From Planctomycetales bacterium (lineage in GTDB: Bacteria; Omnitrophota; Gorgyraeia; Aquiviventales; Aquiviventaceae): a stretch of 45,247 nucleotides of DNA. The stretch spans positions 1 through 45,247 of the forward strand of contig SBAZ01000013.1 of assembly GCA_005239935.1 (NCBI GenBank). The letters run 5' to 3'. Positions 26,709-29,516 of the stretch are shown here, piece after piece. Position numbers and translations under genes: made by a program. Positions within the stretch are counted from its first letter, which is position 1. Each line of letters begins with the position of its first letter. The notes under the pieces are model-generated. The model was given only the letters and a program-made list of their open reading frames with translations, made no database searches and was not told the origin of the DNA.

Positions 26709-29516
26709 TTACAGCGGTACGACGCGACGCGCGCGCCGTCCCTGGGCTCCAAAATGGTTCCGGGTGTCCACAATGACGCGGGCGTGGCGCAGGACCTGGT
26801 CGTAGTCCACGTGTGTGTGGTTGGTCAGCAGGACCACGCAGTCGGCCCCGCGCAGCTGGGCAGGGGTCAGCGGGACCGACCGCTGCACCTGGCCGTTCAG
26901 CTCGGCGGTCGGCACGTGCGGGTCATGGTAGCGGACGACCGCGCCGCGCTCGGCGAGGTGCTTCACGACGTCGAAGGCTGGGGAGTCGCGCGTATCGCTG
27001 ACGTCCTTCTTATAGGCCAGTCCAAGCAGGAGCACGACGGCCCCCTTCAGCGCCCGGCGACGCTCGTTGAGGATGCGGCCCACGCGCTCCGCGACGACTT
27101 CGGGCATGCCGCCGTTAATCTGTGTGGCGAGCTCAATGAAGCGCGCCTCATAGCCGTGCACCCGCACCTTCCACGCCAGATACATGGGGTCCGATGGAAT
27201 GCAGTTGTGCACAATAATGCCATAACTCGTGACGAACGTATGGGTCGTGTCCACTTCGGCGGAATACACCATGCGGCGTCCCCGCTCCGTACGACGCTCC
27301 CGCAACGGCACCCCGACGTAGCCGTCGTACCTGCGGAACGAGCGGTTCGGCATGCGCTTGACATGCCCGTTCAGATACCCCAAGAGCCTCCGACGCTTGT
27401 GCCCATCAAGCCATCCGGCGCATCGGCGTACCTGTGTCTCGCCCGTGATGTAGAGGAGGTTCGGCCGGCGCTTGAAGCTCGGCACAATGCCCGATCCCTG
27501 TAATAGCAGAACCACTTGCTGAAAGAGCCGAGGATTCACGGTGTAGTAGTTCACCACGCCACGGTTGACGCGCGTGCGATACCATCGTCCGCGCTTCATG
27601 GCCACGCGCCAGCCGTGCGCCGTCTCCACCCCGCCGTCACCGCGCAGGAGTCCAGCCAGGACCGCCTCACGGTGCCTGACGCTCAACCCGAACACCACGT
27701 CAGGAATCCGCATCGAATAGGAGTCGATGCCACAGCGCAAGGCATCCCGAAGCAGGATGCCGAAAGGCACGCACGACACCTTCACATGGGAGGTCCGCCA
27801 CTGCCGATCGTCGAAGGTGCTCCAACGAAACCCTAGACCATTCAGAATCCGTTTGACGTCCTCCAGGTATTCGCGCTCCGCTCGATTGAATGAGAACCGG
27901 ACACGCAGGGATTCGTCCTCCGTGATGCACCCCTCGCTCAGGTAGTAGCCGAGGAGGCGGCACACGTCTTCGGTCAGATCGATGACCGCCGGGCAGGCGG
28001 TCCAAGATGGTCCTTTGCCGGACGTCAGTCGCACCTCACGGTGATCGACCGCGGGAAATCCCGGCTGCCGACGGGCCTCAAGGTAGGCAGCCAGTGGAAT
28101 CGCGTTGCGCCGATAATACTCCCAGGGGTCTCGGCGGTACCGCTTCAGCACCGGCCGCAGCCATGGACGGAATCGCTTCCAGGACCACCCGTTCGGCATA
28201 ATCCGGATCCGTTCACGATATGCCGGGTGGCCCGCGAAATGCTCAATCAGATCCACCGCGTGCTGCGGGACCCCCTGGGGTAGCGAGTCCATCACGACCA
28301 ATTCATCGCTCGCCAGGACGTCCTGCGCAAACTTGACACCCAATCGCCCATTCTGGATGACCATGGGGTGCCGGTTCGTGACGCGCAATTCGCGGCCGTC
28401 CCCGGCGCGCAAGTGCACCATCGGGCCGTCATAGGGCCTGGAGACAAGCCACTGCAAGGGCCGAAAGATGCTTTTGCGGCGTTTCAGGTCAAACGACAGT
28501 GTCTGAAGCCCCCGCGGCCGGATGAACGTCATGCCCTGGCGCCGGTGGACACGTTCGGGCTGCTCCATTGCCAGCTGATGAAACGCCTCTTTGAAACTGG
28601 TCACCTCCACGGTCTCCCCGCGTTTCAGCACAAGAATCTCGCGTCCATCCAGGCAATGCCCACCGATGCCAGGGCCGGGATAAAACGGCATAAACCCGAA
28701 CGGCTTCGTGCGCGCCCCTTCGATGACCTCCCAGACGTTGATGCCGAGGCGGTCACAGATGAGGGCGATCTCGTTGACCAAGCCGATATTCACGGCCCGG
28801 AAGGTGTTCTCGAGGATCTTGACCATCTCCGCGGTCTTCGCCGAAGACACCGGCACCGTCTTATGGATGACCGAGCCGTAGAGGGCGGCCGCCAACTGCG
28901 TGCACGCCGGCGTGGCCCCACCGACCACCTTCGGAATGGTCCGCGTCGTGTAGGTGGCGTTGCCCGGATCGATGCGCTCCGGCGAGAAGGCGAGTGCAAT
29001 GTCCCGGCCGACCTTCAGTCTACGCGCCTCGAGCGCGGGCTGCACGACTTCTTCGGTCGTGCCGGGGTACGTGGTGCTCTCAAGGACGATCAGCTGCCCG
29101 CGGCGCGCCCGGCGCGCAATCTCCTGTGTGGCCGAGAGGATGTAGGACATGTCCGGCTCGCGCGTCTTCCGCAGGGGGGTGGGGACACAGATGATGATGG
29201 CGTCCTGGGTCGCCAGGCCCGCGAAGGAGGTGCTCGCGCTCAAGCGGCGCCCCTTGCGCGCCGCGGCCAGGTCCTCGCTCGAGACATCCTCGATGTACGA
29301 GCGCGCGCTCAGCACGCCGCGCACGCGCCGCTTGTCCGGGTCGAACCCCGTCACCCGGAAGCCTTCCTTGGCGAACTCGACCGCCAACGGCAGACCGACG
29401 TACCCAAGGCCCAAGACCCCGACGCGCGCGGTCCGGCGCTCGATGCGCCGCGCCAGACGGGCCAGCGGCGGCGAGAGGGTTTTCCGTACCGCCTTCTTCG
29501 AGCGTCGGCTCGGCAT
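26709..29516 (-). CDS. UDP-N-acetyl-hexosamine 6-dehydrogenase family (TviB/WbpO/WecC-like), intein-containing precursor
   Basis: [22 protein letters not shown] (NAD fold), [19 protein letters not shown], then PGPGIGGH|intein|[12 protein letters not shown], and a C-terminal [17 protein letters not shown]. ATG at 29516 lies 5 nt after the rfbB stop. 935 aa, of which 451 aa are extein. Confidence 0.85.
   Translation of the reverse strand: [935 protein letters not shown]
27204..28655 (-). mobile_element. Intein A (484 aa) with a LAGLIDADG homing-endonuclease domain
   Basis: It starts with Cys (CLDGREILV), has block B TxxH (VTNRHP), carries LAGLIDADG motifs [10 protein letters not shown] and [11 protein letters not shown], and ends IIVHN followed by the +1 Cys. 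Codon arithmetic was checked against the sequence at both junctions. Confidence 0.85.

Follow-up and report, generated by a model that had tools for sequence, protein, structure and literature searches.

The 45,247-nucleotide contig SBAZ01000013.1 (assembly GCA_005239935.1, deposited as a Planctomycetales bacterium and placed among the Omnitrophota by GTDB), in its full length referred to here as the window, carries on its minus strand a nucleotide-sugar dehydrogenase gene that is interrupted by an intein of 484 residues (intein A, 27204..28655). The precursor gene occupies 26709..29516 on the minus strand and was delimited from the list of open reading frames (ORFs), the TIGR03026 match and the Pfam UDPG_MGDP_dh domains. 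From an ATG at 29516 it encodes 935 residues without frameshift or stop codon; the longest ORF (26709..29621, minus strand) starts with a GTG at 29621 and comprises 970 residues, with intein A placed by script at residues 323-806. Translation most likely begins at the ATG at 29516, which is Met36 of the longest ORF, because the N-termini of orthologs align to it and because it lies 5 nt past the stop codon of the upstream gene. Ahead of this ATG the longest ORF has 35 further codons (29517..29621, minus strand), which overlap the end of the upstream, dTDP-glucose 4,6-dehydratase-like gene and lack a counterpart in the orthologs. The N-extein (28656..29516, minus strand) has 287 residues, ends with ...PGPGIGGH and shares 77.5% identity with its counterpart in the ortholog from a syntenic metagenome-assembled genome (MAG). 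The C-extein (26709..27203, minus strand), delimited by alignment to 4r16 and Cap5O, consists of 164 residues plus the stop codon; its first residue is Cys+1 (27201-27203), which opens the motif C-IPSDP, so that splicing from the ATG at 29516 would leave a product of 451 residues. In the full protein the three UDPG_MGDP_dh domains (N-terminal PF03721, central PF00984 and C-terminal PF03720) are matched with the central one split in two, and TIGR03026 (nucleotide sugar dehydrogenase) matches the unspliced protein at E 3e-129 in two separate stretches. A sequence-only reading of this DNA had proposed a 484-residue LAGLIDADG intein at 27204..28655 on the grounds that the ORF exceeds the family norm by about 480 residues. 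The same coordinates and junctions were recovered by script, on the minus strand, which that reading had not named. Profiles, structural model and fold search likewise identify an intein, and the excess in length is real: the 120 closest extein homologs among the matches listed have 416-471 residues, are 66-79% identical to the exteins and contain no insert, compared to 935-970 residues here.

Intein A follows directly on ...PGPGIGGH, begins with CLDGREILV, ends with SYGIIVHN and spans 484 codons without a stop. All positions given below lie on the minus strand, and those of the named motifs and residues were checked by script. The N-terminal splicing region (HINT region, about residues 1-135, 28251..28655) contains Cys1 (28653-28655) and the block B motif TNRH (T93-N-R-H96, 28368-28379); it is covered by TIGR01445 over residues 1-99 and by modelled beta strands over residues 7-122, and its end is backed by a mini-intein relative (P0012) whose retained part stops at residue 136. 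Residues 136-440 (approximately; 27336..28250) form the linker or DNA-recognition region and the LAGLIDADG endonuclease core, as judged by PF14528, the alignment to the Thermococcus kodakarensis intein PI-PkoII and the model. Both LAGLIDADG motifs, LLGYYLSEG with E241 (27930-27956) and LAGLLRGDG with D340 (27633-27659), are included in the PI-PkoII alignment. The C-terminal splicing region (about residues 441-484, 27204..27335) comprises blocks F and G, is matched by TIGR01443 and closes with H483-N484 (27204-27209), immediately before Cys+1. In an alignment of 48 inteins from the same site, C1, H96, H483 and N484 are invariant (48/48), while T93 is kept in 46 and E241 and D340 in 47 each; intein A has all seven residues. 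The canonical elements that the sequence-only reading had listed (Cys1, TxxH, the terminal HN, Cys+1 and an acidic residue in each LAGLIDADG motif) are thus all in place and conserved in 46-48 of the 48 relatives.

Excision of the intein in silico restores an ordinary dehydrogenase. The spliced protein matches TIGR03026 once and over its full length (2-413 of 413, 448 bits), and the junction aligns without gaps to the Pyrococcus horikoshii UDP-ManNAc(A) dehydrogenase 4r16 (pgigvgghclpkdp) and to Staphylococcus aureus Cap5O (3ojl; pgpgvgghclavdp). In both alignments Cys+1 coincides with the invariant Cys of GGHC. We take this position to be the catalytic nucleophile of the dehydrogenase family, as established for Cap5O and UDP-glucose dehydrogenases. 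Four aligned intein-less orthologs read PGPG[IT]GGHCIPSDP[MV], and the spliced junction is identical to two of the four; the expectation that excision would regenerate the family motif GGHC[IL]PxDP in frame therefore holds. At the DNA level, the intein-less junction of the intein A site reads CCTGGCATCGGTGGGCAT before and TGCATTCCATCGGACCCC after the insertion point and the reconstituted junction of intein A reads CCCGGCCCTGGCATCGGTGGGCAT followed by TGCATTCCATCGGACCCCATGTAT; the homologous site of the UDP-glucose dehydrogenase gene is ...GGCTACGGCGGGTTT followed by TGCTTTCCGAAGGAC...

The identity of the host enzyme is best given at a coarse level. Among the specificity models, the spliced protein passed only the subfamily-level TIGR03026; it missed the equivalog cut-offs of NF040825 (275.6 vs 750), NF008286 (257.1 vs 459) and NF011729 (TviB; 213.1 vs 592). 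Close orthologs are named 'UDP-N-acetyl-D-glucosamine dehydrogenase' or 'nucleotide sugar dehydrogenase' in the databases. A substrate-level name, be it UDP-N-acetylmannosamine (UDP-ManNAc), UDP-N-acetylglucosamine (UDP-GlcNAc) or another, was dropped since none of these NCBIfam cut-offs was reached. The earlier label of a TviB/WbpO/WecC-like enzyme consequently survives as a loose family designation and fails as the name of a specific enzyme, no NCBIfam equivalog cut-off being reached. As part of the explanation that we favor for the locus, the host is very probably a nucleotide-sugar dehydrogenase of the UDP-N-acetylhexosamine type that belongs to a polysaccharide-biosynthesis operon.

Profile searches and the alignment of the spliced protein had been suggested as checks by the sequence-only reading, and both bear out the intein. 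LAGLIDADG_3 (PF14528) matched intein A with an E-value of 1.7e-9 and 38.2 bits (Pfam cut-off 22.5) and TIGR01443, the model for the C-terminal region of inteins, with 22.6-25.5 bits (cut-off 15.6). Intein parts of the NCBIfam models for the intein-containing proteins Tes, PolII large subunit and RpoA'' also match. The model for intein-containing tetraether lipid synthase Tes spans the whole of intein A at an E-value of about 1e-20. Among sequences in the PDB, PI-PkoII (2cw7) was found at E 3.8e-14, with LLGYYLSEG aligned to LLGYYVSEG and LAGLLRGDG to FLEGYFIGDG. An AlphaFold model built with 22 homologs in the alignment reached a mean predicted local distance difference test score (pLDDT) of 93.2 and a predicted template modelling score (pTM) of 0.91. 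It shows the beta-rich strands of the HINT part (residues 7-122 and 441-483) with a helical linker or DNA-recognition region between them, and two alpha-beta-beta-alpha-beta-beta-alpha halves that open at the LAGLIDADG helices 229-241 and 326-340; in the endonuclease core the pLDDT exceeds 90. A Foldseek search with this model against the PDB returned PI-PkoII (4e-29, TM-score 0.67), TliVMA (1.5e-19), PI-PfuI (9e-19), PhoVMA and PI-SceI (about 1e-11), followed at lower ranks by free-standing LAGLIDADG enzymes (I-Tsp061I, I-DmoI, I-OnuI, I-AniI) and mini-inteins.

Several observations weigh against this picture. Two splicing-domain profiles, although significant by E-value, remain under their curated cut-offs: Intein_splicing PF14890 (E 1.2e-5; 25.6 bits vs 35.8) and TIGR01445 for the N-terminal region of inteins (E 1.5e-4; 22.7 bits vs 24.5). 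In block F, Ser465 (27261..27263, minus strand) occupies position 4, which is commonly Asp across inteins. Intein A also departs from its family at four of the 41 positions conserved to >=85% (T84A, T212S, S295C and S374N), of which the last three fall into the endonuclease region and make the activity of the endonuclease uncertain. Finally, splicing, the dependence of the enzyme on splicing and endonuclease activity are what we infer from these data. The low profile scores are offset by the Foldseek matches to mini-inteins, with a root-mean-square deviation of 1.6-2.5 Å over about 125 residues. Ser465 does not mark this copy as defective because Ser is family-wide at this position (46/48 relatives) and is followed, two residues on, by a conserved Glu. 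The family may here have its own variant of the splicing active site. The number of departures places intein A in the upper middle of the range across the same-site family.

The sub-threshold splicing profiles and the block F Ser would be expected if the insert were a dead intein that cannot be spliced and inactivates the dehydrogenase as a pseudogene. However, all residues for the four splicing steps are present and conserved in the family, the 935 codons contain no frameshift or stop, and the GC content at third codon positions (GC3), 0.85-0.89 in the exteins, has the level usual for expressed genes of the window. The exteins are, moreover, still 66-79% identical to the closest intein-less orthologs listed, and the Ser shared by 46 of 48 relatives across many phyla does not mark a family of pseudogenes. 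We consider a dead intein very improbable and rejected the pseudogene reading, as the splicing residues are conserved and the ORF is intact. Intein A itself has a lower GC3 of 0.76, a contrast that recurs in a second intein of the window, intein B (0.75 vs 0.88-0.89 in its exteins). This fits a mobile element whose history is in part its own or whose codons are under weaker selection. Taken together, 27204..28655 on the minus strand encodes, with high probability, a canonical intein of class 1 in which a two-motif LAGLIDADG homing endonuclease of predicted fold is embedded.

Based on these residues, protein splicing would follow the standard course. A precursor of about 103 kDa would be translated and undergo an N-S acyl shift at Cys1. 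Cys+1 would then attack the resulting thioester (trans-thioesterification), and cyclization of Asn484 with the assistance of His483 would release the intein. A final S-N shift would yield the contiguous enzyme of about 50 kDa with the motif GGH-C-IPSDP, next to a free intein of about 55 kDa. Because the intein splits the central (dimerization) domain and because Cys+1 is at the same time the nucleophile of the enzyme, the dehydrogenase would be active only after splicing. Intein A would thereby be a further case of an intein placed on a catalytic nucleophile.

If the endonuclease is active, it would cut intein-less alleles at the conserved coding site of GGHC-IPxDP, and repair of the break would copy the intein into them. 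Homing of this kind would account for the sporadic presence of the intein among close orthologs and for its very wide taxonomic spread. The endonuclease of intein A may indeed still be active as its catalytic acids are kept, though the departures at conserved positions make this uncertain. A plausible if tentative alternative is that splicing works while the endonuclease has decayed, leaving an immobile, vertically inherited passenger late in its homing cycle that is kept since its precise excision is needed for the enzyme. Three of the four departures at the 41 conserved positions (T212S, S295C and S374N) lie in the endonuclease region, and in the closest syntenic genomes the intein is 58-60% identical compared to 63-78% for the exteins, which fits long vertical residence under relaxed constraint. 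A near relative, the mini-intein P0012, has already lost the entire endonuclease domain. On the other hand, intein A retains E241, D340 and the conserved Lys-containing motifs HVKVS and MKRGR, its 484-codon ORF is intact and its core is modelled at pLDDT >90. Furthermore, the four substitutions are conservative and several family members deviate equally or more.

P0012 (locus L002:21-1586, JGI 3300025157) is a mini-intein of 192 residues at the same site that lacks, in frame, the equivalents of residues 137-427. The deletion corresponds exactly to the non-HINT part (linker and endonuclease) of the AlphaFold model and exemplifies how inteins degenerate in the course of the homing cycle. The metagenome fragment P0019 represents the full-length form of the intein, and its C-terminal part is nearly identical to P0012 (1 difference in 210 shared residues). 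If the deletion in P0012 is taken at face value, mini- and full-length forms may coexist in one population. With intein-less alleles and a mini-intein among close relatives, the family offers material to study how specific homing is, how inteins pass between paralogs and how the homing cycle proceeds.

The insertion site itself is shared far beyond the window. A search of 5.8 billion proteins with the intein alone found 22 proteins, all with the junction HN/CIPxDP (the slash marking the splice junction) wherever the C-terminal end is present. The best full-length relatives are 59% identical in this collection and 60% identical in the GTDB species genomes; one metagenome fragment is 81% identical over 28% of the length of intein A, and neither the protein collection nor the GTDB species genomes contained a near-identical copy. 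In a library of 1.84 billion representative proteins we obtained 738 matches, of which those with E<=1e-30 formed 63 clusters (50% identity). These clusters are mostly dehydrogenases of 860-940 residues with the intein at residues 270-750 (approximately), and the relatives fall into two extein classes, GGHC/IPxDP and GG[SFY]C/FPKD. At least 184 species-representative genomes contain a relative of intein A. The insertion point, GG[HSFY]/C...HN/C, is the same in all 80 loci that were kept from the scan of these 184 genomes and in 46 full-length representatives. Bacterial carriers belong to Omnitrophota, Planctomycetia, Chloroflexota, Acidobacteriota, Eisenbacteria, Gemmatimonadota, Desulfobacterota and Cyanobacteria (Oscillatoria) and include the cultured Desulfonema magnum with its complete genome (WP_207678278.1); archaeal carriers are found in Woesearchaeota, Bathyarchaeia, Nanoarchaeia and Methanosarcinales. 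These data also bear on the idea that an error of assembly has joined a dehydrogenase to an unrelated intein gene. The window is apparently derived from a metagenome and has no identical sequence in the collections searched, which would suit such a chimera. Both junctions are in frame, however, and all 80 independent genome loci show the same architecture, among them that of D. magnum, whose genome is complete. An artefact was rejected for these two reasons and appears exceedingly unlikely to us.

The closest genome copy is that of the Omnitrophota MAG GCA_030697665.1, an intact ORF of 931 residues with the same junctions and 59% identity in the intein. Its synteny with the window extends over genes for a transaldolase, LptD, UDP-glucose dehydrogenase, a nucleotidyltransferase, a dehydratase, the intein-containing protein, an epimerase and a DegT aminotransferase. 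In the deposited annotation of this locus (L001:9149-11944, JAUYPJ010000098.1) only the last 647 of the 931 residues are called, as 'UDP binding domain-containing protein', with the start placed inside the intein, directly past its Cys1. This misannotation arises because the intein interrupts the gene. Annotation pipelines misread such genes to the point that the closest public ortholog is called only from inside the intein. The gene described here should be read as one precursor of 935 residues that would give rise to a dehydrogenase of about 50 kDa and an intein of about 55 kDa.

Inteins in this host family have been known for some time. UDP-glucose dehydrogenase is listed among the metabolic enzymes that host inteins (PMC2874743), and Soucy et al. 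2014 treated the 'udp' allele as ancient and crossing domains, with copies listed from Methanocaldococcus jannaschii, Thermococcus, Halobacteria, Dictyoglomus and Fervidibacteria (PMC4071816). Intein A shares with this allele (InBase 'UDP GD') a host from the UDP-glucose/GDP-mannose dehydrogenase family, the full size, the LAGLIDADG endonuclease and the spread across the boundary between bacteria and archaea; it differs in being a new sequence in a lineage of high GC content, which synteny and the neighbours of the extein mark as Omnitrophota-like. From the archaeal loci found here we infer that it occupies the same site as the M. jannaschii 'udp' reference. A cluster look-up of ten archaeal-looking representatives returned no Methanocaldococcus name, and a text search of the literature for 'MJ1054' and 'UDP GD' gave no match. 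Intein A is therefore a new and well-preserved copy of the known, widespread dehydrogenase ('udp') intein allele and does not open a new class of element or mechanism.

With PI-PkoII (T. kodakarensis DNA polymerase intein 2), PI-PfuI and PI-SceI, intein A has the arrangement of HINT domain, DNA-recognition or linker region and two-motif LAGLIDADG endonuclease in common, whereas host protein and insertion site are different and identities in the structural alignments amount to only 12-17%. Given the different host site and the low identity, its DNA target would differ from theirs. The next-closest inteins outside the dehydrogenases are those of PurL (FGAM synthase II) and NrdD (E 1e-40 to 1e-21), which share HINT and LAGLIDADG_3 domains with intein A but have other hosts, other junctions and 26-33% identity. 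These nearest non-dehydrogenase inteins are P0066, P0067, P0081, P0083, P0090, P0095 and P0102, hosted by PurL and the anaerobic ribonucleotide reductase NrdD. The PurL junction reads HN/C[VI]G[VI]PT in five of six cases and HN/CMGAQP in P0066.

The second intein of the window, intein B, is a LAGLIDADG intein of 476 residues (31851..33278, minus strand) in a UDP-glucose 6-dehydrogenase gene (31317..34082, minus strand) two genes upstream. Its site, GYGGF/C...VVHN/CFPKD, is homologous to that of intein A. Both are inserted just before the catalytic Cys, fall into the same length class and show the same motifs; intein B departs at none of the 40 highly conserved family positions. The two inteins are 30% identical over their full length (E 8e-52). 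Intein A has a mean identity of 35% to the GGHC/IPxDP class, and intein B reaches up to 46% to the GGxC/FPKD class. As each is closer to its own extein class in other organisms, inteins A and B are independent residents. Recent copying between them within the genome was considered and is ruled out by the identity of 30% and by the closer relatives that each has in its own class elsewhere. The window thus presents two diverged inteins as a natural pair, with paralogous enzymes as hosts and homologous points of insertion.

Two inteins in one operon raise the question whether they act together. Both sit directly at the catalytic Cys and have Cys at positions 1 and +1, their hosts are two enzymes of one operon, and the same pair is present in Omnitrophica bacterium 4484_171 (locus L018, MVCW01000028.1; about 1625-4318 and 5218-6663), where one gene cluster combines inteins of the UDP-glucose dehydrogenase and the GGHC class. 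Conditional splicing has been described for other Cys1/Cys+1 inteins. The pair could thus be a regulatory device in which splicing is conditional, for example through a redox trap formed by Cys1 and Cys+1 or through temperature, and both dehydrogenases become active post-translationally under certain conditions only. However, the gene of the intein A type has a UDP-glucose dehydrogenase ortholog beside it in 21 of the loci fetched, and this ortholog is uninterrupted in 20 of them, including the syntenic Omnitrophota MAG; only L018 has both inteins. Hence 20 of 21 related gene clusters contain just one of the two inteins, and the 120 closest extein homologs listed contain none, so that the arrangement lacks conservation as a system. 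In addition, selfish inteins usually sit at conserved active sites. We regard a regulatory device as unlikely. That the paired inteins serve as a conditional, for example redox-sensitive, switch that gates the supply of precursors for an envelope polysaccharide, and are not purely selfish, is likewise quite improbable.

Both inteins lie within a cluster of same-strand genes related to polysaccharide and lipopolysaccharide synthesis (about 19000..37900, minus strand). Read from 37.9 kb, its first part encodes a transaldolase, an LptD-like protein (943 residues), the UDP-glucose dehydrogenase, a nucleotidyltransferase, a 4,6-dehydratase and the gene interrupted by intein A; the second part, down to 19 kb, continues with an epimerase, a DegT aminotransferase, a flavin adenine dinucleotide (FAD) oxidoreductase, another epimerase, an ABC-2 permease and an asparagine synthase. 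The GC content between 26 and 35 kb is 62-67% (69% in one 1-kb bin) compared to 66-75% in most of the flanking sequence.

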